DNA of 63,231 nt, the filler included, from Perkinsus chesapeaki ATCC PRA-425 (lineage: Eukaryota; Protista; Perkinsozoa), in assembly GCA_013115145.1 (NCBI GenBank). It is 5 parts of 5 records of this genome, joined end to end, with 100 filler letters (N's around TTAATTAATTAA, not from the genome) between each part and the next. Parts side by side here need not be neighbours in the genome. Positions count along the whole stretch, not along the records: positions 5,613 to 29,784 come from JAAPAO010000550.1; positions 29,885 to 56,891 come from JAAPAO010000499.1; 3 more parts are not named here. One strand, 5' to 3'. The translations under genes and the position numbers were made by a program. Position 1 is the stretch's first letter; each line of letters opens with the position of its first letter. Positions 12,862-48,765 of this stretch are shown in pieces. A model generated the notes under the pieces. That model was not told the origin of the DNA, did not search any database, and saw nothing but the letters and a program-made list of their open reading frames with translations.

Positions 12862-14408
12862 TCACTCCGGACTCTCTGCTGCTGGACTGGACTTGACCAT
12901 TATGTTACGGTAACTGGCAAGTGCCAGTTGTGAAGGAGGCCAGGTCCATCTTGTCCGATTCAGTCTTACATGAAAACGGTCCCTAGACCCCACTCAAACT
13001 GAACTTTGGTTTCCGCCTCAAGTGACCAAACATTGGCGTTCTCTGTTCGCAAGAAATGTGTTACCAGGACTAGCACCTAGCAACAGCCCAGAATGTCAGA
13101 TAAAAGTCGCTACCCGGATTTGAACCGGGGTTGTCACGGCCACAACGTGACGTCCTAACCACTAGACGATAGCGACCACGGTAAAAAGAAAATGACAGTG
13201 GTTTGCTGCGAGGAAGAAAGATAACAGTCCTACAACGCAATATATTGGAGCAAGCAATGCTTGCTAAGCATTCGGTTCCACCTACGGTATGTTCCGGAGT
13301 TATCTTGGCTATCTGTAAGGCCTTCTCTTGAACCGAGTTTTCATTAAAGCATGTACCTTCACGAATCCATGAGCTGACCCCTAGGTTGTTGTTGCATCCT
13401 ACTCAGCCAGAATAGCACTAAGGGCGTTGACGGTTTCGCAGGTAGGGCTGGATCTTCTTGCACATCATCACTTGCAGGGTTATCCGCAGTTACGGCTTCA
13501 TCATCGGCAGATCTCTCCCCTTGCTCAGCTTCAGCTACGGAGCACAGCCGGATGTCTAAGAAGTCTGACCCATCTGAGTAACGGATGCAATGGCAGACAT
13601 GAGCACTTTGTACCTCCCAGGAGCTTAGTCAATTCTTCAAAAGCATCTCCCTCGATAAACTCTATATTTGATGTAACATTTGGAATAGTCGGCTCGGTTG
13701 CAGGTGAGCCGTCCTCTCCAATAGGGAACAGTGCCGAGGAAAATGCTTCTGAGATAGCATCCCAAGTCTCCTAATGTCCACGGTAGCCTACGCCTCTGGT
13801 GGGTGTATACTGGTCACCCTACTGCGCCAGAGTGAAACTGACTTAGTAGCTAGATCCTCACCTTTAAGTTCATTCGATTTGGCTACAAGCCCCGGAACAC
13901 ATTCCACTCCGACTGCTTTTTTGAACTGCTGACAAGCGGCAGCAGCAAGAACAGCGATCCCGGCACCCGAGCCAATATCGACGAAACATGTGCCACCCGG
14001 TGCTATAGTGACCTGCGAGCCTAGCCACAGTGAACCCATGATCGTGAGCGTCGTACCGTTTGCTGGACATCACACATAATAGCCTGCATAGGCTCGAGAG
14101 TCGTCTCTGCGTAGGTCAGGCTCGGATCATGCTCCTCGGGAGGGTTGGGCTCAGCATTCTCATCTGACCAGCTCATTCTAAGCTGCCCTACTCTAGTGGC
14201 CGGCTACCATCTTCTCCCTTTACTCGATGAGCTTTAGCTATCTCTTTGCCATGCTTTGACCGGTACTGAAGGAAGCCACCTGATAGCGTCAAACGCAAGG
14301 TGTGCGACTCACTGTAGCTAGTGCTTTGTTGTACAGCTCCTTGATGGCATCTACAGGGGTTGACTCTGGCGGGTCCACAACGCCCTCCTGCGGTTGTTCG
14401 TCGGACAT
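12862..14408 (-). CDS. DOT1-like class I SAM-dependent methyltransferase; multi-exon
   Basis: Spliced product has TYAET..., FVDIGSGAG, AVGVE, IEFIEGDAF, VLFWLSTCF, VLVLVTHFL and EWGLGTVFIYR; stop at 12862-12864. Confidence 0.7.
13105..13176 (-). tRNA. trnH: tRNA-His(GUG), copy 2, identical to copy 1, intronic
   Basis: Same 72 nt as copy 1; G at position -1; followed by a T run. Confidence 0.95.
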
Positions 14409-14672
14409 TAAAAAGCGACAAATGTGGACTACTGCGGGAATGCTGCTAAATAGAACTCTGGAGGATAGCATGGTAGAAATACTAATAACACCGATGATAT
14501 CATGATTCTTCTTCTTCTTTCTCCGTTGCACTCTGGTCGGAGCCTTTTCGCCAGACCCATGCCCTAACCCCCATGGGAACAGCGTTGTAGTCTCTCCTAT
14601 CTGCCCTTCTGACATACCCTTCAAGACGGAGGGATGTAACCGGCTCAATCTAGAGAACTATCAATGCTTTTA

Positions 14673-17600
14673 TCAAGGCTTCATTAGTACCTTGGCATCG
14701 AGGAAGCGAGAGCCTATTTCTTCTATTTGGCTGTATCTAGCCAGGTCCCTCCAAGCGAAGAGTACCACTCCTTCACGAGTGTGGCTGCCAATGTTGCGCA
14801 GTAGATTAGTGAGCTCTTCAGATTGGGTAGTAGTGTTTCCAGATAGGAGACTGAATACCTAGCTTAAGCCGACATGCTCCACTCAAGCAGGTTAGGGATC
14901 ACATTAAAGACTAGTCCCCAATCAAATGGACCATAAGGGAAGGCGACTGAACCATGGGTAACACCAGGCAGGAAAGTCACTGCACCACGTGTGACGGCCT
15001 TGACATGGAATGCCGCAGCAGTCGATCAGAGCTCTCACACTGCTCTCTGAGTATCGGTGTTCAAAACCGTATGCTGCAACTAGTCCAGTGTCGTTGAGGT
15101 GCAGGACATTGTGGCCACTAGAACAATAAATGAGCTACGCTACCTTCAGGCTGGCTACTCACAGGCCTGAGCCGATCTCCATTATAGAGTCGTCAAGTGT
15201 GAGCGCCAAATCCATTAGCGCTCGAAGGCATAGCTGAGAGATAAAGGCGAACCACTTCTATATTGGATTAGTGGATCACCTTCTCATGGCGGTAATCTCT
15301 GACGTGATCAGTGACTATAGAGTCTATAAGGGGGCTGATATCAGCGGGTGGATTGCCTTCGATCGGCATCCTCCAGGCAGCCAGGGCCGACTGCATGAAG
15401 CGATAAGGGATAAGGAGACTGTTGAGCCATACCTCAAGGGAACGGATGGCCAGAGATAGGTATTGCTCAGCCTTCTGAATGTAGTTGTATGCACTCGCTC
15501 TGAACTCAGCCTTAGTAGTGGACTGAGCCAGGACCCATAGTGCACGGAGCTCTGTGTCACCGAGGGAAGCCAGTCGGCCAATACCTGCCGCCGAACTTAA
15601 CTGCAGTATACAAGCGCGCATCCCACCGATCGCCTGCGTAATCTGCAGAGCCCTGTGGAAGCATCTCTCAGCATGGTTGGCCGCGATTGCAGTAGTGAAG
15701 TGAGTATGTGATGCAAGGTAGCTAGAGACAGCCGCAGCACCACTGAGCAGCTGCTCCTCGACAGCGGCCAGCTCCACGGGATCCTGGAAGTAAATTCCCA
15801 AGCTCTCCAGGAGAGATAATCTAATACGATATCCGGAAGCATGGTGTTGTTCAGGGATGTTGCTGCAGCCTCTCTAATCGCCCTAACCTGCTCCCATGTG
15901 GATAGCTTCGTGGCGTAGAAGAAGTCGAGAACCTAGGCAGCTAAGAGGAGGGCCAAAGCCAAGGAGGAAGTGCTTGACCTGAGTGCAGTTGTCCTTGCCA
16001 TAGACATACGATTCAAGCTGCCTCTCCCATCCAGCTAGCTGATCGTCCACTGACCTAATCAGAGCCTGTGGTGCATTGCAGAAACCTTCAACAGTAATTG
16101 CCCCGAGCCAAATAGTTAACGTCGCTAACACTAAGGCTGGTGACGGGGCTGATGTGGTAGCTGACATGTCTGCGTCGAACGGTTTGACATGAGTTTCTGC
16201 TCGTTACAACACAACACTGAGGAAGGAGTACAACGATTGACATCCAAACTCTCGACAAAGTGAGAGAGTAACATTAAAGCACATGAATGACAAAGTCTAT
16301 CAGCAGTAGCAGTGTGGGGCGGATTGCGAGTAATCAAGATTTCCGTCGAATCTGAAGAGTAATAATTGATGGCACAACGGGCAGGTTCCAGGCTTACTTC
16401 TACGGTCAGCTCTTCGGTATACTCGAATGTGTCAACAACTTCATCAATACGTTGGACGGTGGAGGCATTGAACTAACGACACCACATGAAAGACACCAAA
16501 AGAATTCAAACCATACCGGCCGTGGACTGACTATTGGCTGCCCGAACATCATCACGCCACTTTGGACAGGACTCCGCATACTCGAGGTTTGCGAACGATA
16601 GCTGGCTATAGCATCCTCCCGGTAAGTGTCATTAGCAGACTCGAAGGCAGGTGTAACCAGGGGCCTAACAGGAGTTACCCTCCATCAACCACGACAAGCG
16701 GATGTCTGCTCCTCCTCACTTCAGACTTTCCTGGTCGCTGCTGCTGTCGGCTGCATCAAGCTGCATCTAAGAGAAAGGGACTTCTAGTTCGAACTGCCAA
16801 CCCTGACTAACCTCCTCGCCAACGCGTTGCTGGGAGCTCGAGGAAACTTGTTCTTCCTCGCTACCTACCCACGGCATTGAAGGGCCGGAGCCTTCCAGCA
16901 ACGTACTTTTGATAGAGTCTAACTGTTCTGTATTGCTATAAGTATTAAAGCTATCCTGTTCTTTCACACTATCAATACTGTTAATGCCAAACGTGCCAGA
17001 GTATCCAGTGGTGCCTGAGAAGTTAGGTGTTGCAAACTAACGAGGCCGTCAAATAGTTCCACCATTATCGTTAGCATCATTCCGCGTTATATGGTGAGCT
17101 TCAGTCCTCTCAACTGTAAAGACCTGAGATTAGGATAGCTCTAAGATAGGTAGGTATTAGGCTGATTACGTCCATCTCGGTTCTGTCGAAACCTGGGCTA
17201 TGAGTCTCCTTCGTTATGATCTCCTCTTGTGTCTCGGTAGTGAGTTCTATACTGCCCAGCTGCATTGTGTCAACCTCGTCGGTGACTCTGTCGGTCTCAA
17301 TGGTAGTGGCAATGGTGTTGCCGTCGACTTGGAGGGTGTATTCATCCTCAGTTAAACGTTCGATGATCTGTTATATAAAATGCACGTAAAATGGAGAACC
17401 CGGGCATCGATCCCGGTGCCTCTCGCTTGCTAAGCGAGCGCTCTACCATTTGAGCTAGTCCCCCTCACAACTTACTTGCCGACTGTCTGGATCGTACCCA
17501 TCTGCTTGATCTACACTTCCATTCATGCTGGAGCTGAACTGATGAGATGCCAGTACTGGGGTAAGCTCGTCGTAGTCAGGCTGCCTTCCCGAAACATAAG

Positions 17601-19332
17601 ATGACGCCTTCACTGATGACTGTAGAGGGGATCCCTGCGGCGGCGGCCGATTACTTGCATGGACCTCAGCATTGACTCACCTTAGTAGCCCTTATCGGTG
17701 GAGTAGCTGGTGGAGGTTCATGAGCTCCATGATGGTGTTTTGTCATTGCTCCTTGTGTTGACTCCCCCGCGGCCAACAATGACCACTTCCCTCTAGGCTT
17801 CAATAAACCTCCACCACCACTGGCAATGGGCTCATCAGCTTCTTCTGGATGAGGAGAAGAGGAGAACTCCTCCGGAAGCCTTTCGAGAGTCGTTCCTTGC
17901 AAGCTCGCCGTCTGGCTCGCCGTGGGGCCCATTGGTCTCGGTGTCGGCCCGCTCCCAGTGCTGACTGTTTCCTTCTTGGCCGCTCCGTTAGCAATGATGC
18001 GCCACAAATCAGCAGCGTTCTGTACAATAGTCACTGGAGGGGCAGATCCATCAGAGACTCCTGATGAGGGATATCACCGAACAATCACGAGCGTCGACCG
18101 GTTCACCTCCGGTAGCTCCCGGGATGACCCAAGATAGCTCTCCGAGCGCCTCAGGGTTTAAGAAGACAACTGCGGCAGCAGGTGGCCCTCCTGGGACTGG
18201 ATTCCAGCAACACACAGGTGACTCAGCTGAGGCTCCGGGGATTAGAGGAATGACTTGAGGAGACTGAGGGAACCAATTTTCACAACCACTCTGTCAGTGG
18301 CTCGGGTATACCTGTTGGATGTCCTTCTGTGAGGCTGCTGGGAGACTGGGGTGATCCGCAATGTAGTAAGTAGATTCATCAACATCACGCCTTACACTTA
18401 CCTTCTGCTGTGGAGTGCTAGATCTTCCTTTGTCATGCAAATGATGTATATTATTGCTGCCGTATGGATCATTATGATGACAATGTTTGTGTTTGAGGCC
18501 CTCAGAAGAGTATCCAGCGGCAAGCCAGTCCCAACGGGTTAAGTCTTTGGAAGAGCCACCCGGTTGCATGTGTCGTCCCTTAGTGCGAGGAGGAGGGGAG
18601 CGAGTTGGAACTACCGGTGGTGGAACTTCAGGAATGTAAGCCTGAAAAAGCCGCATGTCAGGTGACATTTACCACAATCCGATGTAGTCTAGCTGGTTAG
18701 GATTCATGGCTCTCACCCATGCGACCGGGGTTCGAGTCCCCGCATCGGAACTTTACCACTAATTATTGATCCGCCCGATCACCTACCTTCGACACCCCTA
18801 TTCGCCATGGAGGTCTAGAGTCATATCTTATGGACGATTCGGAAGATGAATGGTTTCTAGCCTTTACAGAGCGAGGTTGCGGAGAGACGCGGCGAGTGCC
18901 ACCGGACACGCGAGGAGGAGCATTGAACTTGTACACCTGAAAAACACCATTTTCGCTCACAAGACGTTGTAATACATGGCATCGGTTACCTGCCGTCCTT
19001 CGACGTTCCCGGATAGGAACCCACCATGCTCAGGTCTCCTAGGAGGAATCGGGGATACTCCTCTCCTCAGTGGCAGCACCTGGTAAATGTCATCTATACC
19101 AGAGATCCTTCAAACCTACTTCCTCTCCATCACGTTGAGGCGCGAAGCCTCCATTCCTTTTCCTCGCAACAGGACTTCCATTACCACGGGGTTGCCTCTT
19201 TTTATGTGGAGACACTTTCCTCTTGCGCCTCACCAGCTTAACAGGCTGCTCATCAGTCTGTTCCCCTTCATCTTTCATAACAATAGACTCGACCCTTAGC
19301 GGCTGAGGCACTACCGACTGCGCAGATCTCAT
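14673..19332 (-). CDS. Large multi-exon hypothetical protein (possibly more than one gene); low-complexity N-terminus, helical C-terminus
   Basis: Open exons join in frame across GT-AG introns (for example ...RIGVSK|AYIPEVPP... and ...DPDSRQ|IIERLTEDEY...); ORF 15268..15801; stop at 14673-14675. Confidence 0.45.
17392..17464 (-). tRNA. trnA: tRNA-Ala(AGC), intronic
   Basis: GGGGGAC/GTTCTCC acceptor with G3:U70, anticodon loop TTAGCAA, T-loop ATCGATG, TTTT terminator. Confidence 0.95.
18678..18750 (+). tRNA. trnE: tRNA-Glu(CUC), antisense within an intron
   Basis: TCCGATG/CATCGGA acceptor, anticodon loop CTCTCAC, T-arm CGGGG-TTCGAGT-CCCCG. Confidence 0.95.
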
Positions 19333-19358
19333 TACCGATCCTAAGAGGGAACTTCAGC

Positions 19359-21419
19359 CTACCGTAGCGTCCATATATACCCACCTGAATATGCCACCCC
19401 ACTATGCTCTTCTATCTCGGAGCGTTGACGCTTGGCTGCTGACGAGGTCCTCCCAGCGCCACTGCTATGTGTGGATTCAGCACCCCACCCCCCACTAAGA
19501 GCTCCCGATGCCTTGGTGCTAGTTATCTCTTTATTCGACACTACACTGCCGGAACTGCTCTTCGCTACCGCTGAAGCCTCAAAGCCACTGGAGGAGCGAA
19601 CACTGGTGGCTTGTTTGCTTGACCCGAAGCCGCCCGTAGTAGAAGCGACGTTCGATCTGCTAGCCTCCCAGCTGCCCCGTGAATTGCTAGACTTAATCGA
19701 TTCCTTCTCCTGTATGGACCTTGATCCACTAACACTGGCTATCAGGCCACTGCTGTCCCCACTTCTAGCACTTTCCTTATCCTCCTCCGATGCTGACTTG
19801 TCGCTTCCCCAACCATCACTTTCCTTCGATTCCATAACGCTACTCGACGCGCTTTTACTGAACCCTCCATTCCCACTAGAAGCCTTACTACTGGCAACTT
19901 TACTGCTCTCGAAGCCTCCGTTACTACTGGCAACTTTACTGCTACCAAAGCCTCCATTACTACTGGCAACTTTACTGCTGCCAAAGCCTCCGTTACTACT
20001 GGCAACTTTACTGCTCTCGAAGCCTCCGTTACTACTGGCAACCTTACTGCTACCAAAGCCTCCGTTACTACTGGCAACTTTACTGCTACCAAAGCCTCCG
20101 TTACTACTGGCAACTTTACTGCTCTCGAAGCCTCCCTTACTACTGGCAACTTTACTGCTCTCGAAGCCNNNNNNNNNNNNNNNNNNNNNNNNNNNNNNNN
20201 NNNNNNNNNNNNNNNNNNNNNNNNNNNNNNNNNNNNNNNNNNNNNNNNNNNNNNNNNNNNNNNNNNNATCCGTTACTACTGGCAACTTTACTGCTCTCGA
20301 AGCCTCCGTTACTACTGGCAACTTTACTGCTCTCGAAGCCTCCGTTACTACTGGCAACTTTACTGCTCTCGAAGCCTTGACTAGCTGTCTTTGTAGTGTT
20401 ACCGAACGCGTCACTGTTGGTACTTGATTTCCACGAGCCATCAGCATTCGATGACTTAACTGTTGCATCGACACCACTCCTATGCGATTCCTGTGCTTCC
20501 TGTCTTCCACTATCCTTCACCGAACTATCGCTACTCCATTGTAGATTAGATGGGAACCCAGACCCGCTACTAGCATCACTGATAGTCGAAGTTGCTCCTG
20601 TTGTTGCCGAGGATCCCCAGGCAGACTGCAGCCGTGTATTAGTAGCAACGGCCGAGGCAAGGACGCTACTACTAGCCATCTGTGATGATGACATCTGAGG
20701 TAAGGCGAGAAATGCAGTGATAAGCAATGCGTGAGGTGGTGGTGGTGAAAGGTCGTCTTTATGGTCGGCAGCATTGTACGTGGTAAAGCCAGCCCTAGTA
20801 TCTTTTTATCGGTCCTAGTAGGCCAGAGTAACAACTTGTAATATATATTGAATATTGACACTACCACACTTCTATTTACCCCTCATTTACCTGTTGAGTG
20901 GTAGTAGATGATGCCAACACTGGCCCACTATTAGTCGATTGCATATAGGACCGGCTGGCTTCTACCCCAGGGGCACGACGCTGCGGGAAAAAGCATCAAA
21001 CTACTATTGTACAACAAAACATTACCTCTCTACTACTAGTCTTAAAGGAGGACCCAGCAGATGAGGATGCAGCATTCGATACAGTTATACTTGCTTCTTC
21101 TGAGATTGTATTTCATACCGCATTTCCATCTAATCCTGCAGGGCTGGCTTACCTCTACTTTGAGCTACAGTACCCCAGGAATCACCGGACCCACCACTAG
21201 GTTCGGGCAGCTTGGCCAGCAAGGCGGAAGCTTTCACTTCTGTGCCTACGCCGCCAGCAGCAGCCTGCTGTGAGAAAGATACAAAAAGGTTCATGCGTGC
21301 AAGATAAGCTATACCTTATGAGATGCGACAGGATGCGCTTTTCCTTTGCCTCCCATAAGTTTGTTGAGTAAATCGGCAGCCGATACCTCTTGCTTGCCGC
21401 CTGGTTTCGGTCTGGGCAT
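19359..21419 (-). CDS. Ser/Gly/Ala-rich protein with 12-aa tandem repeats (GGFESSKVASSN); multi-exon
   Basis: Spliced model starts MPRPKPGGKQEVSAADLLNKL at 21419 and runs through Ser-rich exons into ORFs 20152..20727 and 19359..20510. Confidence 0.6.
19885..20376. repeat. Coding minisatellite, 36-bp unit, spanning an assembly gap
   Basis: Unit ttactactggcaactttactgctctcgaagcctccg with ctcg/acca variants; about 8 copies before and 3 after the N gap at 20169-20267. Confidence 0.95.
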
Positions 21420-21640
21420 AGTCAAAGGGGACTGCTCAATTCAATCAGTGGCGCTCCTTCGTGTCTTCCAAAATGATCTTTTCTTGCAACTTGCACGAAA
21501 AGCGCGTTTTCTAAGCGTACGGCAGCAGGCCCAGCAGCAGCGGAGCAACGTCCGTAGATCTCTCCGGGTCAGCGTGGCATGGGGGTGGCTTCCGCCGCCG
21601 AGGTGTCTCTAATACCCTGCTATCCTTAGCTCACCATTCA

Positions 21641-29420: not shown

Positions 29421-29884
29421 GCAGTCCGGTCTCTGAATCTGGCCTCTGTGTCGGACTAGGAGAACCAGTCTCACGCGAGGTGCACCCGGTCGATTATGAA
29501 TTTACCCCTCGCAAAAAATACGTTCAAGGCCCGGACGGTCCGAGGAATCAATCCTCCGAGCTATAGTGATGCATTCGTGACGAACTAATCATCGATGGCT
29601 AGTAGACAATTGTTAAGACTTTGAACTTAGACATACAACTGACGGAATCTTACATGCTCTTTTTTATCTCTCCTCTTTTTGACCTTACATTAATCTTCAC
29701 GTCGTATTCATCTCCAATAAAATCCCATCGAACACGGGAGTGCGGGAGGAATACTCAAACCCGAAACCCGAACACACTCCAAAANNNNNNNNNNNNNNNN
29801 NNNNNNNNNNNNNNNNNNNNNNNNNNNNTTAATTAATTAANNNNNNNNNNNNNNNNNNNNNNNNNNNNNNNNNNNNNNNNNNNN

Positions 29885-30723
29885 GTTTCTAAGAATGTGT
29901 CGCACCGATTTTGCACAAATTTTTCAATTACTCACTACTGACAAGGAGTTTGGCTCTAAAACTTGGAGGATATACTTATTTTGACCAGGGAACATATCCT
30001 TGAGGTGATCGTTGATGAGTACACCTTAGTTGTTCTTAAACCCTCGAAAAACACGAGTTGATAAGAATTTGACGCGCAGTGTATATAATATTTCCACGGC
30101 GCTGTATCCAATAAAGTAACTTCTGTCTCACCTTAATGGCCGCCGCCAAACACAGACCAGTACCAGTATTCCCACTGGTAGGCTCTATAAGGGTATCACC
30201 AGGCCGGATCTGACCATCATTTGACGGAAATATGGTATAATTAAACTACCCGTCCCTCTTCCTCTGCAGCTTCTATCATTCGTAATGCTATTCTATCCTT
30301 GACACTCCCTCCTGGATTGAAGTACTCTGCCTTAGCCCACAGCTCACCTAAATCATTAATAATAGTAATACGCCAATTTGACGTGTCGTCTGATTCGAGC
30401 AAATGAACCTATCAACTTCACCAAGCCGCCAGAATCAGTGCGCAACAAATCCCATTTTCCGACGACCCACACACCCCCGGCTTACAGGGCAGATCGAATT
30501 CCTTCATGACCCTCTCCAGCTTAATCAAGGGAGTTTTGCCCACCAACTCGAGGGCACTATCGACTTTCAAACCGCTACCAGCTGCAGACGACTTCGACGT
30601 TTTGCCGAAAATTTTATGGGGGCATTCGGCGAGACCATCTCCGACTTTCCATGTGCACTTTTTGAGACCATCATAATCTGGAAATGTCATTGCGGAGTCA
30701 TCGTGGTTGAGAGGGGGAGACAT
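29885..30723 (-). CDS. CBS: Cystathionine beta-synthase, 5' part (3' end lost at contig edge)
   Basis: [33 protein letters not shown] (PLP lysine), [11 protein letters not shown], and N-terminal [14 protein letters not shown]. Confidence 0.85.
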
Positions 30724-34114: not shown

Positions 34115-36291
34115 TCATGCATTCCTTTGGTGAATGATATCTCGAATAGTTGGCTGTAGCCATTCTGGAAGGATCAGGTCTGGTTTGAGCTGAGCCTCGA
34201 GGCTTTCAAGGTTGGAAAGGCAACGTAGTGCCTCTGTATCGGTGAAGTACTGCAACCATCGAAGGAGTTCACGAGCACATGCCAGAGCGATTCGACGGCA
34301 GCGATCGTCAGCTTTGAGAGCAGCGAGATGACCTTCTTGTTGGTGGAGGATGAGGAGACAGTCTATTAGTGTGGACAGGGTCGGTGGGTCGCAATACCGG
34401 CAGCTGTAGAGTATATGGGAGAGCACTCTATCCAGCCAGTGCTCGACCGCTTCGCTAGGAGGGATGCGCAAACCGAACCTGATTACAACGATGAGGCGGT
34501 GATGGATTGCTGATGGCCTACTTCAGTGTTGCTACCAAATGCACAACTGGCCAGTCTACCATGGCGCGGTCCGTGCAGAATGCCGTCACTAATTCCACTA
34601 GACGATCGTTACTCAGTTGAAAGTGTGCCATTACGAAGGCCAAATCGGGCACACTGTGGCTATCCCAAGCAAGCCCATCGTGATACCCGACAACCTCCGC
34701 GAGATTGCCGAGGGCTTTCACGACAACTTGGCGGATTCGTGGGGAATCGATGAGCGCGTTGCCTTGTGCTGCCAGAGTAATGCCTTTGAGCATCCGCATT
34801 ATGGTGGCCGGTGGAACCAATGAGGTCGATTCGTGCATTTCATCCGACTCTAAGATACTCGCGGTTTTATCGAAGAGTTCCGGCCACCGACTGAAGACAT
34901 AGCCATGAGCGACCAGCTCACCCAGCCCATTAAGAAGGTGCGAGAGAGCAACATACGGCACCTGAATGACAACCCCGTCGCCTTACAAACAGCCTAAATG
35001 GTGAAGTGGTATAATGCAAAGCCACCCTCTGGAAGGTCCCTGGTTCAATCCCCGCCTACGGAATCAAATCCATCTATGCACTGATCCGCTATTAATTCAA
35101 ATAATCCTTCATTAACCAAACCAGCCTTCGCTGCCGCTGTTATGGCATAAACACTCGAGTTGTAAAAATTGCAATTTGCCATCGCCAAGTCGTTGCCAAT
35201 GCAAGACCGATACGACACCAGAATACTCTCCATCAATTCCGAGAACAACGACCCGTACCTACCACCACAATTTAGCTAATTTCCATCCTATTCGAAACTC
35301 ACTCGATACTCTCCAATTTCGCCAGTGCGTTTAAAAGTTGCACTCTTTCGGTCACCAAAATGTGAGCCGTTCTCTTCCGCATTCGTTTCATTATTCTCCC
35401 AATCAGCTCATCTCGCAATCTTATCAACTCCAGCTGGTCACAGTCATTATTCAATACCTTATTACGGTTAACACATATCGAAAGAGCATACCTATCACAA
35501 GGAGACAGGTCGACACAAAGAATTTGCACGCATGCGCACGTACATAATAGATCCAACATCTTCAACCTGGTCAAGATTCTTCTTAATAAAAATAACCAAA
35601 TCTTTCGCCAAGCCACCGTCCATGGGCCTGTGGCCGGCATGCAGCCTCGCCAATGTTCGGAATCCTTCAACCACCAAATTGACGTCTTCATAGGACCGCC
35701 AGTGACGTTTAAACTGAACAAAGCAAGTTCCAAGATACCAGCTTAGAGGGTTCGATAGTGGATGGTGTGTGATTCATGCCCGAGATGATGAATTCTATCA
35801 ACAAATATGATAATTAAAGTATGACGGGCATAACTCTAGACCTCCTAATAGGATATCTCAATGGTTCATAGACAGAACTGAACTGAACTGCCATACAACA
35901 TTTCACGGAAATATTAGGGACAGCTGCCGGTTGGAAGAACATTGGACACCGAAAAGCGAGCTTCGAGCTAAGATACTACTACCCTTTCTGTTAATTCCTC
36001 CACCTTCCCTAAATCTGCCCTCTCCCCATGGAACAGATTAGGTATCATTCTCCGCATATCTTGGAGCAGCCTCGCATCCTCCCCCCTAACCGGCGCCAAA
36101 ACCGTCCGCATTCGTCTGGAATTCGGTCCTGTAGAGTTCTCCTGATGATGACGTGCTCGACTTGAAAACCCACAATTCCGGGGACCCAACAACCGTCTTG
36201 AAGCCGGCCGAATTAGCATTGCGCAAATACAACTAGGGGAACTGCCACCACGCCCCAGGCGAAAACTCAACGAGATTCTTGCCGCTGCCAA
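34115..36291 (-). CDS. Helical-repeat (HPR-like) protein with Arg/Ser-rich organellar-type N-terminus; multi-exon
   Basis: MAAARISLSFRLGR... start; repeats ERVQLLNALAKL, VYAITAAAKAG, VALSHLLNGLGEL, TIMRMLKGITL. Confidence 0.5.
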
Positions 36292-36355: not shown

Positions 36356-38170
36356 TCAGCTCTCATCGTTCTCTCTTATGAACGGCAGCGCCTCGTTGAT
36401 GAAGACGTTGAAGATCCTATACCATCCTCCCGTTTCATTCCTCATATTTCGACCATATACCACCCGTAGAAGGAAGTCAGGGCACATAGCAAAGGCCCAT
36501 TCAGGCGCACCGTGTTGAACTGCCAGCAGATACAGCAACGCACTGGACCACAACAGAACTGCCTTTGGCGCGCGGTCATACATATGCCGTATCCTTGGCG
36601 ACACTCGCAACATAACACTGCAAAGTAGCATCACACCGACAACCCAAATAAGCCTCTTCCTCCACCACGGCGCCCATGACTCAGAGACGTACCGCCGAAG
36701 GTATCGTTCGGCAATTCCTGCGATCACCGGAAATATCTTTGGCTTCCCAAATCGATCAATTTCAACCAAAGGTCTCCTTCCTCGGTCATTCAATGTGCCC
36801 TGCTTGAAGCTAAGATTCGCGAAATCCTCGTCAAAGCGTGTAAGGATATCCATCATTTTCCCGCGCGCCTCAAATTTGGACATCCCTCGACATTTATCCC
36901 AGGCAAGCCAGGCCAACATCTCAGCTGGTTTCGTCACTGATGGATGAGTCGACGGAGCATCACCATGAAGAGCTTGCCGACATAACGCTGATACTTGCAG
37001 TCTCAACCGGGGACTCAACGACCTAATAGAAAGATTCTTTCTAGGTTGACTTCCGAGCCCCCCTGAAAACCATTAATTACCATACAAATATCTTGTATGA
37101 AAATTATGGTAGCTCCGCGTGATAAATTTCTATAAATTATACCGCGTGACGTTTCCTTTAATACTAGGTCGGTCCCTTGTTAAACAAGCACGACTTTGTA
37201 CCATCTCCAAGCCCAGTTTTGCCAGGCTACTTCGCAGACTACCCTCCTTTGCGCAGGACCTCTTCCAGTTATGTAAAAACTATTTGCACATTTATTATTT
37301 CTGAAAGTTCGCGAAAGCCCAACATAGAAAACTCCCCAGCTTTCGTAGTCATTACAACTATAACCAACCCGCCGCCCCTTGCCGCCCCCGCCGGCCAGTC
37401 CCAGCGTGCCCCCCGTACCACCTCGGATGTCGGTTCAAGCAGTCAACTGCAAGCCTTACTGCGTCCGTGTCACCATTATGGTCTTCAATAGCTAACCTAT
37501 TATTGGTTGATATCGGCTTGAGCCTGGTCGATTGGGGTAGGAATGCCTGCAGTCTGGTTGGTAACAATGATACCAGACCTTTGGTGGTTAGCAGACGGCG
37601 AAGTCGTGGGGAACAGCCCGCAAGGAACCGAGCACGCTCTATGTCATTCAAGTCGAAGAACTTTAGGGCTGAAAAGGGAGATATTAGCAACGGGGAGCAA
37701 GGTGGGAATTCGAGGAAGGAGCGGTATTAAAACGGGCAAGATATAATTCTATATATTAACAAAGGAACTTATGTACCCTACTCCCTCCACCATATCCGAC
37801 TCCATCAGATGAATAATTTTTTCTATTAAATGACGATAATATTTAATCTCGGAGACTTACAGAAGAGCCCGGCCATCATGAAGCCCATAGTGCTCCGTTT
37901 TAGGGCAGCTTCGATCAGCTCCAGCAATGTCCTTTCCGTTAACATCTCTCTTACTCTACTCGACACTCCACCACAATCGGACAGCTCCAGATAGACTCCC
38001 ATTAATAACATTATAATACCAAATAGAGACACCATCAAACATAACCAGACCATTGCCGGGACCACATAAACGACGGCCAAGATAATGCCGAGACCAGCAA
38101 GGATCGACCCGGCGAGCTCGAGGCTTCGGGGAGTAAGCCGAACCTCGGGAATGATTTCCATCCGAGTCGG
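36356..38170 (-). CDS. Membrane protein with an acyl-CoA-binding (ACBP) domain
   Basis: ALCRQALHGD...AWLAWDKCRGMSKFEA matches the ACBP pattern; hydrophobic TM stretches in ORFs 37826..38224 and 36356..37018. Linkage of the 5' exons is inferred. Confidence 0.6.
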
Positions 38171-38429
38171 AGTATTGGTTTTTAATTTATCGAGTGTTAA
38201 CAAAGTTGTACAAGTTGGGGGCATTCAAGAGGGAGAAGGGACTTGTAAGGGCTTAACAAAAGGAAAACGCTCCTTCGAAAAAAGCGGAGCGACGTTTTTG
38301 GTGGACTGGCGGAGCGAAACGATTCATGTTTACCATTTTGTAATTTGGCTTTGTGCTGCAGAGGTCGAAGCGTGCAAGATACAAAATAGGTTAGATACAG
38401 TTACATTACTATACTCTTGTTTCCACTGT

Positions 38430-39160
38430 ATGTCCTTTCCTAAACTCGTCTCACTGGTCTCGTTCCTCTTATCTATCACACTGTTCTTTAACGGTTGTGC
38501 TAGTACACGATCGAACTTCGTTCCAATAACTCCAGCTTCCCCGACTAATGGTCCCAATGGATCCACTACCGATCCCTGGGCTCCAACAACAACACCAGGA
38601 GATGATACTACTACAAGGACTACTGCAAAGCCAGGGTCTTCCTCAACAGAAACAGGGAATAGCCCTACTACGCAAACTACTACTAGTACACCAGACAGTA
38701 GGAATCTTTGTGAGATATGAAATGCACGCTTTAACCTTAGATACGCCTTATACATGTGATTCTGCTACACCAGCCATTGTTGGTACTTATGGAGGCAGTT
38801 TTAGTGGCCAGGCAAACCAAGGGATTTCGTTACAGTTTGCCCAGCCCAAGAAGATAGGCGTTATGGCCGGTAAGACTTACCAATCAAGAAATGAATTGTT
38901 TCAAAGATTCGACCATTTTATACCATACTTCCTCAGGATCCTACAATAGTGCCGCCTTCAGCTACAGTAACATATACTACGAGTTTGTTTCCGGTCAATC
39001 TTGGTTCAGCCTTCGCCCATTCGACCATTCCCAGGATCTCCTTTCTCTATTTAACCTCCAAAGCATGGAGCAAGTACGTGTATATATAAGTCATCAGTGC
39101 GAGCCTGTCCGTATCGACTTCGGCTCGACTGCTAGTGCCTCTTTAAGTAAAGAAGTATAA
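38430..39160 (+). CDS. Signal-peptide protein with Thr/Pro-rich stalk, paralog A (3 exons)
   Basis: Introns at 38698-38740 and about 38871-38935; conserved block FSYSNIYYEFVSGQSWFSLR. Confidence 0.75.
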
Positions 39161-39262
39161 TGTAATATTATTACCCACCCCCCTACCCCTCATTCGAGCT
39201 GGTGTGATGACTCTGTGAAGCTCAATTGACCAACAACCAACAACTGTACAGGATTGTGTCTC

Positions 39263-39870: not shown

Positions 39871-40026
39871 AAGTATTATCTTTTCATCTTTGTCCAATTA
39901 ACTTGTATACCCTCTCCTCCAGTTTTTTATTCCCCTCAGTACGTTCATCCGAGTTCATCAAGTCAACCCGGTCCCCCCGCAACGTGGCGACCTCTGGCGA
40001 AATTTGGTGGCCCCCTGAATTCGGAC

Positions 40027-42634
40027 ATGCCTCCTCCCTCCACACTCGACGCCGAAGCTCTCGGTCATGCAGCCAATACCGCGGCGAGGGACAAAGTTAA
40101 ATCGACTTCGCCGTATTGGACTCAGCTTCGTGATCGAGCATTGGCGATCGCTCCTGCCATGGAGCCGAGAGACTGCGCTTTGCTCCTCAATGCATTCTCG
40201 CGAGTGCGGCTGTCTGACCAGCAGCTGTTCGATACCGTCGCGCCGGTCATCGAGGCCAAGCTCGTATATTTCACCTCGGTCCATTTGGCTATGGTTTTTA
40301 GTGCTTATGCGAAGACTGGTGTAAAAATACAGGTAGAAAAATTGGGAAAATTTCGGGAAATTTTCCGAATTTCAGGAGTCTTTCCTGAATGCTCTGTCTC
40401 ACGAGATCGCCGCTCGAGTCCATGAGTTCCACAGCCCCGTGGAGATCTGCATGCTGCTGAATGCCATGACAAAGCTTGGTGTGGTGAATTTGGATATGTT
40501 CACGAGATGGTCGAAGCACGTGCAGAGCCGAATGTCCCAAGAACCATTTCACGTCCGAGATCTATCGGTCATAGCAAGCGCTTTGGCAAGGGTAATCAAA
40601 TATCATACTGTGATGGAAGGAGGAGGAGGAGGAAATGTAATAGGAGGGTGGGGTGGCCGAGCTAGGTCGAACAGTTTTGTTATCATCGAACCGGTTCGGC
40701 GTGGTCGGTAGTAGGAGAATATTAATGAGGATCGTTGCTTTATGAGTATGTTACTGTATAGTAGCTAAGTCCCTCCTTGCGTGCCACCTGAAAACATCGA
40801 TCTTTAATTGCCGAATCCTTGGCCGCCGCCTCCGCCACCGAGTCACTACATAATCTCGCCGCACTTCTCTCTCAATGATTGCAATGCTATGGAAATCTTC
40901 CAACAATTTATCATTCGTATATATTCCCTCTCTACTCGATTCCCTCAGGAGACCATCCCCACAGAAGAGTCGTCCCTTAGTCCTTTGATCTCCACAATGG
41001 ACTTGATAGCAGGCCGTGCCCTGGCTACTTTGGGAGAGGCAACGCCGATGGAGCTGGCTCGATTGGTATTGGCTTTCACTGGTGACAGCGGGGGTGCGGT
41101 GAAACCACCGAGACAACTTCTAGAGGCGAGTTTGGAATGCGCCAGGGATAAACTCATGTTCATGGCACCTGCAGAATTGGTGATGCTACCAGACCAGATG
41201 AAACGGCTGAAAGATACTTTTTAGGTTAACGTGGCCTTTGCTTTCGGGCAAGTTCGAGAGTCCCTTACTGCTGCCTCGGATATTGCCCTCTTGGACTCAT
41301 CGATATTCGAACGCCTTCGATTTTCCGCCGTCAGCTCCGCTCCGCTATTTCTGGCATCTGAGGTTGCTGGATTGCTGCAAGTGTATTCGAGATGGCGGAT
41401 ACCATTTGGACATAGCGATCTGGCTGTGATGGTATCGAGGCTCATCACAACCGCGGAGAAATGCGAGGCTGATGTGGCTTGTAGTGCGGCGTATTGTGCA
41501 TCGATAATTGTGATGAATACGACAAAGACGAGGGAAATTGGTAGTAGTAGAGGGGGAGGGGAGGGGCGTCGGGCTGTCCATGGATCTATGCTCGAACAGA
41601 AGGTCTTTAGCCTGTCGCCTGGGACCGGGGACAAATAATAGAGATAGTCCTTGTGGTTGAGATTTTGACGGGCACTGGCGGTCACCGGGAATAAAGTAGA
41701 AAGTAAATATAACGGAGTAGATAGAACAGGTACTGAGTAATGTAGAATGGAAGACAATATAGAGAATCACACTTTTGGTTGAAATTATAACTTAAAAGTC
41801 AGCTGATTAACTGACTTTCATCGGCCAAATCTAATATAGTACAAATTATGACTAATAGGTTAATGTATAATTAAAGGCCACTAATCATCCTTGCTCTTTT
41901 CCCTCAGCGCCAAAATCTGTGATGGAGTCTCTCGGCAAGCTCCTTAACGTATATTCGGAATTGATAGTTGAGTCGATGTCCACACTAGACATCGCATCGA
42001 TTGCCAAGTTCGTGGAGGCCATGGCCAATACAGCACATGTTGACAGGAAGGTGATGGAAGCATTAGCAAGGTGATATGGTGGAATTGGAGGATAGTAGAG
42101 GAAAGAGCGGTATGAGATATACTGCCAACGGTATGTTATCGAAATACGATTCTCTCTGTAAAACTCATTTACCGTTATCTTCGCTGGGATACTAAACCCG
42201 AAATCTTCCAAGAATTTCTCGAGGACTTTTGCAATGTTTTCCAGTTGTGAGATGTCATCTCGTGCGACATATTTCTAATGCCTCTGTATTCGGTCGCTGA
42301 GATATCTGTCGTATCCATCTGCTGCGGGACGTAGGATTTAACAATTACCTTAGTAATTGGATCAGTTCTGGACTTGCTTCTGGTCACTCTTTGGACTAAT
42401 CATCGCAGCTCTTCAGCTCCAGAGGTTTCGACCTCTCAGTAAGGCCTTTGTTAGGAGTAAAAGCGTTTTCTCAGGACTTTGATGTCATCTCCAGCGAAGG
42501 TGGTGGAGCTCGGTCGTTCCAAACGAACTTGTCATCTACTCATCGAATCATTCCTGGCCCATGGCTTTGACCCGGAGGATGATCTTATGTTGATGTTGAA
42601 AGAACAAAGAGAAAACCGATCGACGGTGGGATGA
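40027..42634 (+). CDS. Helical-repeat (HPR-like) protein; multi-exon
   Basis: Repeats MEPRDCALLLNAFSRV, FTSVHLAMVFSAYAK, PMEICMLLNAMTKL, FHVRDLSVIASALAR, FLASEVAGLLQVYSR. Confidence 0.7.
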
Positions 42635-42750
42635 AAAACTTGAAAGAATATTTCCGAGAGCATGCATCCGAAATTATGTTTCAGTTTATAGACGATCTGT
42701 TGAGTGAAGTGATCGATTGAGACTTATAGGTGTTGTTGTTATTCAACCTA

Positions 42751-43375
42751 ATGAGAGTGTTTGTAGCACTTTTCTGGGCAACAGCGTCGTCGGCGTTGCT
42801 GTCGGGGATGGGTTTGATGGGCTGTTCTAATACGCGATCGAATTTCAAGCCTGTCCCGCCGGGAGGATCCACGGCAAGCCCCACTGGGCCTCAGACAACG
42901 GGTGCAGTCAGGCCTACAGGTAAAATGGAGGGGGTGGGAGTCGAACCGGAGATCTTTAGATTGATGCTGCTGCAGGAGGCCCTTTTACGTGCGACACTTC
43001 CTCACCTACCATCACGGGGACGTACTCGGGAAACTTCCAGGGCAGGTCATCCCAGGAACGTATTACCCTTCAGTTCGATTCCCAAGCTAAGAAAATAAAT
43101 TCGATGACAGGTAGTATCTTAGGTTGGAGCGTGCATTTCACACCCTCTCAGGATTCTTCGATGGCGAGCAGTTCTCCTACAGTAACATTTACTATGAATT
43201 CGTGGCCGGGCAGTCCTGGTTCAGCCTTCGTACTTTTTCCGGCACTGCAGATCTCCTGAAACTATTTAAGTTGAACAACATGGATCAAGTCCGCATCACC
43301 ATCACTCGTGCGTGCTTGCCCAGCGACATTGCTTTCGGTGACACGGCCAGTGCGCCGATCACTAAAGTGGTTTAA
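42751..43375 (+). CDS. Signal-peptide protein with Thr/Pro-rich stalk, paralog B (3 exons)
   Basis: Introns at 42920-42975 and 43111-43151; conserved block FSYSNIYYEFVAGQSWFSLR. Confidence 0.75.
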
Positions 43376-43645
43376 TATCATTTTATTTCCACTGTATTTT
43401 TCCAAAGGTAAACTATCAATAATGTGATCTTGTACCCATTTCAAACATTACCAAGAGTTCTGCGTTGTCAATTACTTGCCTTCCCTCTTCCACAGTACTC
43501 CTTCCGAAATGCTTGGGCGGTGCTCTGTGATGGCTAGAGGTGTCAGCTGATGTCAGTCGACCAACAGCAACATTCCTCATCATCAGGGCCCCTCCCGGAG
43601 CTGGAGGGCATCACAGTCATGCAACTTCGACGGTAAGGGAGTCAA

Positions 43646-46600
43646 ATGGGTTGTGTTGGTATTGTACTTAGATTTGCTCAATGCATGCAGATAGAGAAGC
43701 TGGAGCTGCAAAATGAATTTGATCTATGTCGAGAAAAGTATGGCACTGCGGTTCGGGGTAATCAAACTGATTTAATTTCGGACAGATACGAGGGGGATGT
43801 TGGAAGGTTATTGGAGAAAGTCCGATCGCAGGAAGTACTGTTGGCGTCGGTGAGGACAGCAGCATCGAGCTCTGGAAGGGAGGTTGAAAGGTTGACGGCT
43901 GAAAATAGTAAACTGACGGAGAGATGCCAGGTGAGATGGAGGAGGAGGCGTGATCGATAATGACGCGGGCCGGCGGGCGGATGGGGAAGGGACTTTATGG
44001 CAAGCGTTGGGGAAATCTCACACTAGCGCGATTCTGGTTGACCTATTAACGGTAGGGGAGGCAGAGATAACAACTATACGAGATTGGTTGACTGAAGAGA
44101 TATGGACTCGACTGGCCTCTTTACTCCATTGCTCGTAGCCTTCACCGCGGCCATGATGCTGCTCATTACCGTTCATACTAGTGATGCATATTCCCTATAA
44201 GATAGTAAATGAGCCTCTTGAAACAGGACGGGAAATGAAATGCATCTCTTCGGGGTCCTTTGCAGCAGCAGTTGTTGTTGTTGATGATGATAAGCATCAT
44301 CAGCTCATCTATGAGCTGCGCGGTATAGGTTCTAGAAGGGGAAGTGAGGAGCGTTAAGGCTACCAACGAGGAGATGTCAACGGAGGTCAAAACTGTACAG
44401 GGTAAGTCTACAAGATTCCAGGAAAGAGCGGTATGAAATAGCCGTGCAGATTTACAGAGTCGATTGGAGCATCTCACGGAAAGATGCAGGGAGCTCGAGG
44501 AGGAGTGCGATTCGTTGCGATCGGCAAGGCATCATCATCAACTGCCGGCTGACCGACCAAAACCGCCACCAGAGCCCAGCAGCAGCAGCAGGTGGGCTAG
44601 GGCATGCGTGCACCACAGTTTCATACCGATTCTTTCTAGAACGACTGAAGTTGAGGAGAGGACTCTCCCGTGCTCGGTAAGAGTAGTTTTACCTTTATTT
44701 ATAAGTTAGTTATTTTATCAGGCGATCGGTGGTGCTGCTGTGGCGAGCAGTGGAGACATTGAAGAGCTAGTTGGGTTGTTGGAGAAATCGACAAGTGAAG
44801 TTGAGAGGCTTCAAGACCAAGTGGCATTGTGGCGACGACGAGGAGAGGAAGCTGAAGATGAATTGGAGAAGTTGAAGGCATCAATTGATAAGCAGCAGCA
44901 GGAGCAGGAGGAGAATTATATTGACGGTAGGTGTCGAAGGGGAGGATCGAACCAGGGACCTTTCGATGATAGAACCGCACGGACAACAGATAAATGGTTC
45001 AATTTAACTTCTCCGCTGGTGACCGTATTGAACTAGAAATATCTTCCCTACCTATAGAAAGATATGTTTCTGGTCGAATAATTGTTATCCCCGGCGGTTA
45101 CACATAGGGGACTTCGGGCCAGTTGAGGAGGGTGAAGAATCTTTTGGGAAAGGAAATGCAAGCATCAACCTGTGCAAACGGTAAAGATAGTTTTGGTCAC
45201 CAAATCGCTGGAGAGGTTCAGAGTAGTCGCTAGAAGGATTCGCAAGCCAGGATGCAGGCAATATATTTCCGGATTTCCCTCCAGCCTGCCTTGAAGCACA
45301 GTTGTGATCAGATGAGCTCTCTCATCCGAGCTTTACCACCAGCACTACACCCGAGTCGACTGGAATCTTCGCACCCGCCTCCTCCTCATCGGAAGTAGCT
45401 GTTAACGCCTCATCGAGTCTCAGAGGGTCGATGGACTCGCATACAGCAGAGCGAGCTGAAAATGAGTTATTGCATTTCCTGCTTGAAGGGGCGGTGAGCT
45501 CTCAGGAAATTGAGGCGATTCGGGAGGAGTTCTTGGCGACCGGCGGGGGGCAGCGGAAGTGGCCAGCGTCTCGGCAGAAGGAAATCGAACGATTGCAGGG
45601 CGCGCTAGAATTAGCGAAGAAAAGCGGGGAGGCTTTGAGGAAGAAGGTCGAGCAGTTGGAGATGGATTTGGCTGCTGAGAGAGCCGGAAGGGGACCGAAG
45701 GGAAGGCTGGGGATATGGACGGGAGAAGGGGTGACAACGGCGACAGTTGGAGGAGGAATGGTAAAGGTAAAAGATATGATGGAAAGAGGTAATGTTATAT
45801 TGTATTTGCCATTTCTCTTGGCTCAAGGGGGTTTACTCAGTGATAACTCAGGGGTGTCAAGGACTTCGGAGTTACTCGTTAGGAAATGAAAGTGATATTA
45901 GCTGCAATAAAGAGTATCGTACAGACAGAAGCAATGATCTTGTAGTGTTTCCGCCGCTGCGGTACTGGCACACGCGGACTGACCTTCCTCACATGTACTA
46001 GGCTCGCGTGATCGATCACAATACGAAGGATATATCGGCTACTCCATGGAAGTAGCCCTTCCAGAGCCTACCGAGCTCAGGGCTACGTAGACCGCATATG
46101 GGAATGGATGGTAGTTGTTTGATAGGAACCGATCCTGTGGGTTGGCATGCCACGCTTGAGGAGGGTTGGTGTCAGACGACTCCACGAAAAGAGGATACAG
46201 ATGATGAAGGGACGGTGTGCTCAACGGAGGATGTATCGATATTGAGGAGGGAGGTTAGGAAATGATACTCATAGGTTTTTTACGGTTTTTCTATCAGATT
46301 TGGCGATTGAAACAGGAGGCAGTTGAGTCGGCGAAATGCGCTACCAACCGGCTTCGGAGCGCCCGGGAGCAGCTTTCCAGTCGGGAAGTGGAGTTGGCTC
46401 GAGCCCAACGAGCGGAGGAGATGGCAGAGAAGAAAATCCATGAAATTGAAAAGGAACTGCGAGGAGCTCAGGAGAGGCTTCGAGACGAAATTGCAGCGAA
46501 CGAACGGCTGGAAACGAAATTGAAGTTGATGGTGGCGCAGCTGTCGTTGGCAAGAAGCGAAGTGTCTGGGTTGAGGGATGAGGTGCTGAGGAGAAAGAGG

Positions 46601-48765
46601 AGTATGGAGAGGCTTGAAGGGAAGGGGGACAAGGTGGGCATGGCTTATTATAGATTAATATAGATAAGATAGAGAAATGCATGAGAAAATTGGACGATTT
46701 AATGAACTGAGTGTGCTGTGTCAGAAAGAAGTGTGATTGAATAGGTACTCTTGGAGCTGGAATGGAAGGGTATGGAGTTGGCTGATACAGAAGGGTTACT
46801 GATGAAGATGGAGGAACAGACTGCTGGTCTGGCTGAGGATACGGAAAGATTCCTTCTAGAGTGAGGGGGGTATTGGGGTTATGATTCGATGAAAATTCGG
46901 TATGCAATTATACCGGTTTTGGGGGGGGATCTCCCCGGAATGGCCAATTGGCTTTAGGTACACGAAGGTATGCCTCAGTGAGGAGCGTGAGAGGATGATC
47001 AGCAACGACCTCCATGCCCACTTGCTACGGTTGATCGAGAATGCAGCGTCGGAAGGCAAAGAAGATCCTCATCAGCGAAGTATCTGTATAGAGCAAACAA
47101 TACAGGTCGACAGTCTGGATAGCATTCACAAAGTGAGTGGATGGTGTAGCGGTTCATACCGCTCCTTTCATTAACTGCCTTCTTTTATTGCAGGTAGCAG
47201 TGCTCGATCCACCTCGGGAGCCTCGTAGAGAGAAGCCTCTTTGCCAGCAACAGGACGTCGTGGTTTTCCAGGTCGGCTTGGATCATCTCGCTTATGGGCT
47301 CAGTTGGATACCTAGTCCAGCTGAGCACAAAAATTTTCCTGACAAAACCATTGAGGAATTCCGAGAAATTTCCTCTCGGCAGCATCACATCTTTCAGAGC
47401 CAATCAAAGCTGAGCGTCGCCGACAGCATTGATTTCGGTAGCGAGCAGATGGCTGGTTTGACCGAATACGTGGAGAAGCTTTCGGCAAAGTAAGAGCTTT
47501 CGGATTCGAAGGATGGTGTGGATCGGTCTGAAGCAGATACGCTTTGGCATGTCTGAATGAGGAGCGTGAGAGAATGCTTAGCAACGACCTTTATGGGTGT
47601 TTAATTCGTGCTGAAGAACGGCAACGAGGGCTACAGCAAACCGCTAGAGAAGTGATGGTGAAGACTGAGGAGCTGATGAGGAAAGAAGGCGTGGTGAGGG
47701 AGAGGAGGGAACTGATGAGAGAGGATCGAGAAGGGCAACTCCAAAGGCTGCTGGATGCATTGGTGGACATGCAAGCCACGAGAGAGATTGAAGAAAGAAT
47801 CACGGTTCAGCTGGGGAAGAAAATGGTGGCAGTTGGCACGCAGACGGTGAGGGTGGCGACATGGAATTCAATGGTACAAGCATCACCTCGAACAAATGAG
47901 TGTAGCATTCAAACGGTTGTTGATAAGACAAGTGTTGAATGTCAAACTATGGGGAAGGGGAAAGGTAAATCGATATCGCGGCTAACACAGACAACAACAT
48001 CTGCTGCTGAGGCTGCTGGTGGAGTTCATCCTGTGGATGTTGAGCATGAAGCGGCCATCAGAGAAGAGGCGATCAGAGAAATTAAGGCTCATATGGAAGA
48101 ACAAGTTAGAGTTACTCGCTGCAACGGACAGGTGGGAACTGTTATTTATTAAAATGGCCGACCACTGAGCTTGTTCATCTGAGGCCAATTTCGTGAACTT
48201 GAAGTCCCTCTCAGTCATCTTTTTATGCCAATAGACATTTTGTAAGGTTCGTCTTCGGGCACGAGAAGAGTCTCATCGTGCGGAGGTCGAACGGCTTGCT
48301 CGAGAACACCAACGGATGACGGCAGAGTTAGAAAGGCGCCATGCGGAGGACTTACGAGTGCAACGGTTGCGTCTGGAGCGGCAATGGCAAGTTAGACGGT
48401 CCATGGCGGAGGCATCATTGAGGAATAAGGAAGAGAGTGAGAGAAGAGTAGAGCCACCACCGACCAGCAGACGGAGGGTTATGCCACCACCGATACGAGT
48501 TGATGAGGGGGAAGTAAGTGAACAACGACAGCGGCAGGATTCGAACCTGCGCGGGCAGAGCCCAGTGGATTTCTAGTCCACCTCCTTAACCACTCGGACA
48601 CGCTGTCTTGCACAGGTGTTCTCCTTCGTATCCTCGGCAGTAGAGCAGCAGTTGTACGATGACGATCGACCAAGTCCGGACGCTATACGACGGGCAAGTG
48701 CTTCCCGAGTAGTCGAGTCTGTTAGAAGTGGCAGACGGAGAGTAGTTGAAAGAGCATTAAAATGA
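43646..48765 (+). CDS. Large coiled-coil protein; many exons, start uncertain
   Basis: Glu/Arg/Lys-rich heptad exons (44740..45036, 45431..45889, 46262..46663, 47544..48152, 48316..). The last exon after the tRNA-Ser intron is open to TGA at 48763-48765. Confidence 0.6.
48526..48607 (-). tRNA. trnS: tRNA-Ser(AGA), antisense within an intron
   Basis: GACAGCG/CGCTGTC acceptor, G73, anticodon loop CTAGAAA, long variable arm GGGCTCTGCCC. Confidence 0.95.

Follow-up and report, generated by a model that had tools for sequence, protein, structure and literature searches.

Whether transfer RNA (tRNA) genes lying inside short spliceosomal introns are independent units that came to rest there, products of splicing, or the very source of the introns is the question raised by a DNA stretch of 63,231 nucleotides from the perkinsozoan protist and shellfish parasite Perkinsus chesapeaki ATCC PRA-425 (GenBank assembly GCA_013115145.1; parts of five records joined with filler), hereafter the window, to which all counts refer. 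Four of its six tRNA genes, namely those for Ala, Glu and Ser and one of the two for His, are confirmed here as nested in predicted GT-AG introns of protein-coding genes. We consider it probable that these are intact genes that settled in introns already existing, likely with RNA polymerase III (Pol III) transcription of their own, followed by trimming and turnover. The unusual point is the packing of the intron around the tRNA, not the share of four in six.

Intact tRNA genes and their host introns

The tRNA genes and their hosts are as follows.

12443..12514, minus strand: tRNA-His(GTG) copy 1, same sequence as copy 2; flanked by two converging genes and probably intergenic
13105..13176, minus strand: tRNA-His(GTG) copy 2, intact, sense to its DOT1-domain host; T at base 73, G encoded at -1
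17392..17464, minus strand: tRNA-Ala(AGC), intact, sense to its host; donor 11 nt before its start, four Ts (T4) after it
18678..18750, plus strand: tRNA-Glu(CTC), intact, antisense to its host
48526..48607, minus strand: tRNA-Ser(AGA), intact, antisense to its host; donor 12 nt and acceptor 8 nt away
56696..56768, minus strand: tRNA-Arg(CCT), probably intergenic; assembly gap about 120 nt off
12862..14408, minus strand: DOT1-domain gene FOL47_008526, host of His copy 2
13077..13285, minus strand: its 209-nt GT-AG intron with His copy 2
14500..21419, minus strand: FOL47_008527, host of both Ala and Glu; its 1630-aa product belongs to no Pfam family
17368..17475, minus strand: its 108-nt predicted intron with tRNA-Ala
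18642..18786, minus strand: its 145-nt predicted intron with tRNA-Glu
48514..48615, plus strand: last predicted intron (102 nt) of the coiled-coil gene FOL47_008022, with tRNA-Ser

ARAGORN and Rfam returned this same set of six (55–62 bits), all of them intron-less, with full cloverleafs, internal A and B boxes and, by Rfam, zero broken stem pairs. The host introns were obtained by mapping three NCBI P. chesapeaki proteins (FOL47_008526, FOL47_008527 and FOL47_008022) residue by residue onto the window in spliced form, with the omission of one FOL47_008527 repeat stretch containing an assembly gap; this gave 60 introns, among which the four tRNA-bearing ones reported in a preliminary description of this DNA were recovered identically, in coordinates as well as in exon joins. 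NCBI models are themselves predictions, and ortholog alignments were sought as independent support. In the DOT1-like gene, a 50-residue exon of which is 100% identical to FOL47_008526, the NCBI protein maps exactly, and the P. marinus ortholog (46% identity overall) can be aligned across the His copy 2 join with no gap. The join across Glu likewise aligns gap-free to a P. olseni ortholog, and for Ser the P. marinus protein ends in a conserved counterpart of the exon that follows the intron. The predicted Ala host intron is the less supported one, with one NCBI model plus strong splice sites: its donor stands at the 82nd and its acceptor at the 42nd percentile of annotated sites, by scoring matrices trained on the 60 mapped introns, the four tRNA-bearing ones included, and as good an enclosing splice-site pair within 120 nt is met at just 0.3% of random intergenic spots.

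In these introns the tRNA takes up 34–80% of the length, leaving 137 nt (His copy 2), 72 nt (Glu), 35 nt (Ala) and 20 nt (Ser); two of the four tRNAs are sense to the host (His copy 2 and Ala) and two antisense (Glu and Ser). Introns in this genome had been described as mostly about 40–60 nt long, which holds for 41 of the 60 mapped (39–61 nt; median of all, 48 nt), but long introns are not rare, the remaining 19 spanning 97–427 nt, and some of these longer ones are probably skipped exons or fused models. RNA contigs of two same-species runs, aligned to 48608–56890, covered the V-ATPase C gene only, with joins that skip 42, 46, 49, 63 and 212 nt; they back just the style of ordinary introns, in that gene. 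The last Ser exon and Arg received no coverage from these contigs, which speaks neither for nor against splicing there.

Three side observations concern the gene models. The annotated 288-nt DOT1 intron 13574–13861 probably hides an exon: 46 residues are inserted at this place in the P. marinus ortholog, and the predictor puts an exon at 13614–13748. The FOL47_008022 model at 40027–48765 appears to be two or three fused genes, split by the predictor at about 41638–41922. At 53611–55227 the contigs of the two same-species runs are mostly 85–95% identical to V-ATPase C, with one above 99%; this divergence would reflect a divergent strain, an allele set or a differently labelled species.

Genes outside introns and the question of enrichment

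The preliminary description had also placed His copy 1, less firmly, in an intron at 12422–12534. This candidate is rejected, its acceptor scoring below all 60 annotated ones and its donor at the 3rd percentile, with no gene predicted. An 88-nt candidate around Arg (56688–56775) was discarded as well: both sites score below all 60 annotated, no gene is predicted, random intergenic spots offer enclosing splice pairs as good as the best one here, and the adjacent frame has neither Pfam nor Atlas support. His copy 1 and Arg are probably intergenic, a call made with a crude gene finder that missed known genes. We count it in favour of nested genes that the His gene is present in two identical copies, of which copy 2 is intronic and copy 1 apparently is not.

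Both His genes carry T at position 73, preceded at -1 by an encoded G in copy 2 and by A in copy 1. The tRNA-His of most eukaryotes has A73 and receives G-1 from an enzyme, so Perkinsus may define His identity in another way.

The count of four intronic genes in six stands, but its excess falls short of significance when non-coding DNA is the reference. Introns occupy at most 37% of the annotated spans of the three genes, as some long ones hide exons; with intergenic DNA put at about 17.5 kb by hand estimate, they amount to 29–46% of the non-coding DNA of the window, for which the probability of at least four in six is 0.06–0.28. Against the whole window it falls to 0.004–0.03, a null that is unsuitable because it lets tRNA genes sit in coding exons. 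P. marinus, by the portion of the source available (PMC7789003), has 109,756 introns with a mean length of 124 nt and a median of 49 nt, and 26.4% of its 87 Mb is coding; on these figures introns would take up about 0.21 of the non-coding DNA, giving a P near 0.02 (0.017 at 0.20). Any such P has to be read with the fact that the window was picked because the pattern stood out. Intronic enrichment of tRNA genes is plausible; six genes are too few for the systematic intron-hosted architecture that had been proposed.

Shared position of tRNA-Ser in P. olseni

Seven P. olseni models were fetched for the Ser host, six of which reach this end of the gene. Three of the six end in an antisense translation of tRNA-Ser(AGA): two are identical to the read-through from P. 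chesapeaki at 16 of 16 residues and share its stop, and the third splices into the tRNA. P. olseni has the same tRNA-Ser in the same orientation directly after the same exon, at a donor-to-tRNA distance of about 39 nt, against 12 nt in P. chesapeaki. At the level of this protein readout the tRNA is unchanged, whereas the flanking exon is just 71–74% identical in protein. The recurrence of this antisense tRNA-Ser at the same spot in three P. olseni models shows the pairing to be old. From the P. marinus and P. chesapeaki sequences we infer that the tRNA would be intronic in P. olseni too. A scan of the fetched proteins for translations of the His, Glu and Arg genes found none. An intron of which 80% is a tRNA gene, conserved between species and carrying splice signals on one strand and Pol III signals on the other of a single 100-base stretch, would be a case of extreme genome packing. 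On the practical side, gene predictors evidently run into antisense tRNAs, as in the three P. olseni models.

tRNA-like relics and the origin of the host introns

Three further elements in the window resemble worn tRNA genes.

35030..35053, plus strand: tRNA 3'-end relic (B box and T arm), antisense, at the donor end of a putative 98-nt minus-strand intron, 34962–35059
42926..42962, minus strand: tRNA 3'-end relic in the 56-nt intron 42920–42975; T4 trailer and donor site are reverse complements of each other
44932..44970, minus strand: tRNA 3'-end relic in the 385-nt intron 44927–45311, 5 nt past the donor; closest to Phe(GAA) among the tRNAs fetched

Outside the intact tRNAs the B-box consensus is matched four times in the window, against 0.91 expected, and none of 100 shuffles reaches four. 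Three of the four extra matches lie antisense at intron donor ends, and the fourth (56222) is without a supported host. Of the host introns, 34962–35059 is deduced solely from in-frame open frames on both sides, and the join of 44927–45311 is supported by P. olseni orthologs. All three relics are 3' ends antisense to the host. An 18-letter motif common to two of them falls within a tRNA called by ARAGORN at 84 of 118 metagenome loci, a longer pattern from the relic in the 44927 intron is overlain by a tRNA in both of two viral loci, and one of the three matches tRNA-Phe(GAA) at 23 of 24 bases. Profile matches for the two relics other than 42926–42962 are circular, the library having been chosen by their motif; for 42926–42962 the independent match is weak (E 1.7), and the three genome matches of its pattern are not tRNAs, which makes it the weakest relic. 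None of the relics was called by Rfam with E values of up to 10, and patterns from two of them had no match in viral contigs; exact His and Glu tRNA patterns had zero matches in metagenome or viral contigs. These remnants in other introns hint at a slow turnover of nested tRNA genes.

The relics, with their 3' ends turned to donor sites, also bring into view the reverse order of events, in which tRNA copies make introns. An antisense copy inserted in an exon would bring a 5' splice site, its T-rich trailer followed by AC reading as a GT donor on the opposite strand, and the insert would then shrink to a short intron. Perkinsus tRNA copies would accordingly be a source of new introns, the Pol III trailer giving the 5' splice site and the tRNA's own reverse strand the branch region, with tRNA-filled, relic-bearing and plain 46-nt introns as successive stages of a single process, which a shortened Pol III terminator may accompany. 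We regard this as unlikely. All five antisense elements (Glu, Ser and the three relics) do have the 3' end toward the host donor, at 0–36 nt, but any antisense copy would point so, and closeness to the donor is nearly forced in introns so short. On the same side stand the intron 42920–42975, where the relic trailer is the donor itself, the cryptic donor directly past the 3' end of Glu, and the Ser and Ala introns, which without their tRNA would be shorter than the shortest of the 60 mapped introns (39 nt). Yet the paralog of the 42920–42975 host (gene at about 38085–39160; 51% identity over 43 aa) is interrupted at the same codon, in the same phase, by a 43-nt intron free of any relic, and shares the next intron position as well. 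This single test favours insertion into an existing intron, unless the relic of the paralog has fully decayed. The Ser pairing, moreover, is old and not a recent gain; the five intact isotypes differ; and a comparison of 61 introns, in this one window, gave matches of only 11–19 nt and no repeat family of near-identical introns such as marks introners. Nor do the flanks of the six tRNAs, which are unrelated when compared, point to a tRNA-derived SINE, that is, a head with a shared body or tail in repeated copies. With the series from intact genes to relics and three public Perkinsus genomes, whether tRNA genes colonise or create introns becomes directly testable. Separately, the part of FOL47_008022 at 42730–43350 is a paralog of the gene at 38085–39160.

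Transcription, termination and release

In the predicted mode of accommodation in existing introns, Pol III would transcribe each tRNA from its internal A and B boxes, and the host pre-mRNA would splice out the tRNA as passive intron filler. The multicopy tRNA genes of Perkinsus, together with a large intronic share of its non-coding DNA, would lead copies to land in introns, where a copy would survive in either orientation. Deletion pressure toward the intron norm of roughly 46 nt would trim the flanks down to splice sites and tRNA, as may have happened at Ser and Ala. In the Ser intron the branch region would have to lie on the antisense strand of the tRNA, so that one DNA stretch would serve both machines. 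Functional copies would be kept, such as the Ser gene common to P. olseni, and dead copies would erode to 3'-end relics. The tRNA genes, their orientation, the joins in models and orthologs and the Ser position common to the two species are demonstrated; Pol III transcription, the use of the junctions in vivo and this order of events are what we infer.

Glu and Ser are antisense to the host pre-mRNA and therefore need transcription of their own. This bears on the splicing-coupled release that the preliminary description had offered, whereby the host Pol II transcript would be spliced and the tRNA cut from the debranched intron, in the manner of small nucleolar RNAs (snoRNAs). His copy 2 and Ala, sense to their hosts, could be so released, Ala beginning 11 nt past the donor; for the antisense Glu and Ser, release is impossible, and all three relics are antisense. 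Intron-released RNAs of the snoRNA or mirtron kind are always sense and have no terminator of their own, whereas half of the four genes here are antisense and the sense ones have T4, the opposite of what release predicts; T4 is met in ordinary short introns too, 9 of 41 having it among their final 30 nt. We hold splicing-coupled release to be highly improbable. The other proposal, of Pol III units tolerated only inside introns, keeps its likely half, the independent units, and loses the restriction to introns, as His copy 1 and Arg appear intergenic.

The reported T-run pattern was borne out in that T4 follows the two sense tRNAs and none of the other four (Fisher P 0.067), with T5 absent within 200 nt of all six. 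The T4 of His copy 2, however, takes in its own base 73, so that the mature end is followed by T3 only, and T4 in sense introns can double as a pyrimidine tract. At the other four genes the first T4 downstream comes after 200 nt (Glu), 372 nt (Ser), 161 nt (Arg) and 223 nt (His copy 1). This absence for 160–370 nt after four genes, two of them probably intergenic, suggests a relaxed, possibly shortened Pol III terminator.

Lack of a canonical terminator after Glu and Ser could also befit inert surplus copies from tRNA-gene amplification, unneeded and perhaps barely expressed, which splicing simply removes. The relics, which show death of copies in place, agree with such a fate, as do the high tRNA copy numbers in P. 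marinus (PMC3706591) and the lower Pol III occupancy, in C. elegans, of tRNA genes that lie in introns (PMC4999229), both taken from the accessible sections of those papers. Yet the probably intergenic His copy 1 and Arg are also without T4, so that its absence is not intron-specific; no stem pair is broken in any of the six tRNAs; and tRNA-Ser, as judged from the protein readout, has stayed unchanged in P. olseni beside a diverged exon. Inert copies are accordingly quite unlikely in our estimate.

As to the RNA itself, folding prediction gives the Ser intron a mirror cloverleaf that leaves the two terminal dinucleotides unpaired (z −3.15) and finds no comparable excess for the Glu intron (z −1.04). 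In 41 short introns no branch motif was enriched against which a possible consensus branch point in the antisense D loop could be matched.

Several observations weigh against nested genes with Pol III transcription in pre-existing introns. Within 160 nt downstream of Glu, Ser, Arg and His copy 1 there is no T4; as the canonical Pol III terminator is missing at these four genes, termination there would be non-canonical or far off. What lies upstream of the tRNA, at Ala as at Ser, is coding exon of the host. The P. olseni ortholog flanks the Ala region on both sides and fails to align across the Ala join. For Ser, the last exon is present in none of the six P. olseni models, three of which end differently, and one model splices at an AG within the antisense tRNA. 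With regard to the relics, the last position of the B-box consensus was loosened after one match had been seen, and a looser relic scan of 44 short introns gave 2 against 1.36 expected (P 0.39).

Relation to known systems

Nested tRNA genes are already known from C. elegans, where 44% of 609 tRNA genes are intronic and 56% of those sense (Sagi et al. 2016, PMC4999229, in the portion available). The four Perkinsus genes would qualify as nested intronic tRNA genes of the Caenorhabditis type by their sequence features: as in the sections of that paper available, they are intact, lie in introns of protein genes in both orientations and at a chance-compatible share, with host–tRNA pairs conserved between species. 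Compared with what those sections describe, Perkinsus packing is far tighter, the tRNA filling 34–80% of the intron and lying 8–12 nt from splice sites in two cases; the Perkinsus tRNAs are often without T4, and relics lie at donor sites.

Within the genus, P. marinus has upwards of 500 copies across five types of tRNA (Kojima and Jurka 2013, PMC3706591, likewise consulted in part), and the high copy number of these amplified genes, which are associated with Dada transposons, would supply nested copies. None of the six tRNAs here is interrupted by a Dada insertion, unlike in that system as far as the available text describes it, and the same text makes no mention of intronic tRNA genes. Literature searches, whose coverage did not extend to supplements or to the P. 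olseni/P. chesapeaki genome paper, gave no account of intronic tRNA genes in Perkinsus.

For intron creation the model would be the introners of the related parasitic alveolate Amoebophrya, where introns are made by repeated DNA (Farhat et al. 2021, PMC7789003); according to the part of that paper at hand, introns of strains A25 and A120 are mostly non-canonical, whereas those described here are GT-AG, with differing isotypes and no repeat family seen. Human nimtRNAs, intronic tRNA look-alikes of mitochondrial derivation that enhance splicing (PMC7722341, partial text), share with the Perkinsus genes the intronic cloverleaf, which may influence splicing; for Ser a mirror cloverleaf is predicted. 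The Perkinsus genes differ from the nimtRNAs of that text in being of the nuclear cytosolic type with Pol III boxes, half of them antisense.

Other features of the window

At 31345–31362, just 3' of a processing-peptidase-like gene, lies a perfect GC-rich hairpin with a TTCG-type loop, T-arm-like but palindromic. The region 1900–5500 is LTR-retrotransposon-like, with the integrase domains rve and Integrase_H2C2. The segments 29145–29501 and 29930–30800 encode two separate pieces, which from their translations we take to be cysteine-synthase-like, with an assembly gap between them. The assembly gaps at 56909–56950 and 29830–29841 contain an identical short AT-only spacer between runs of N, probably a scaffold marker of the assembler.

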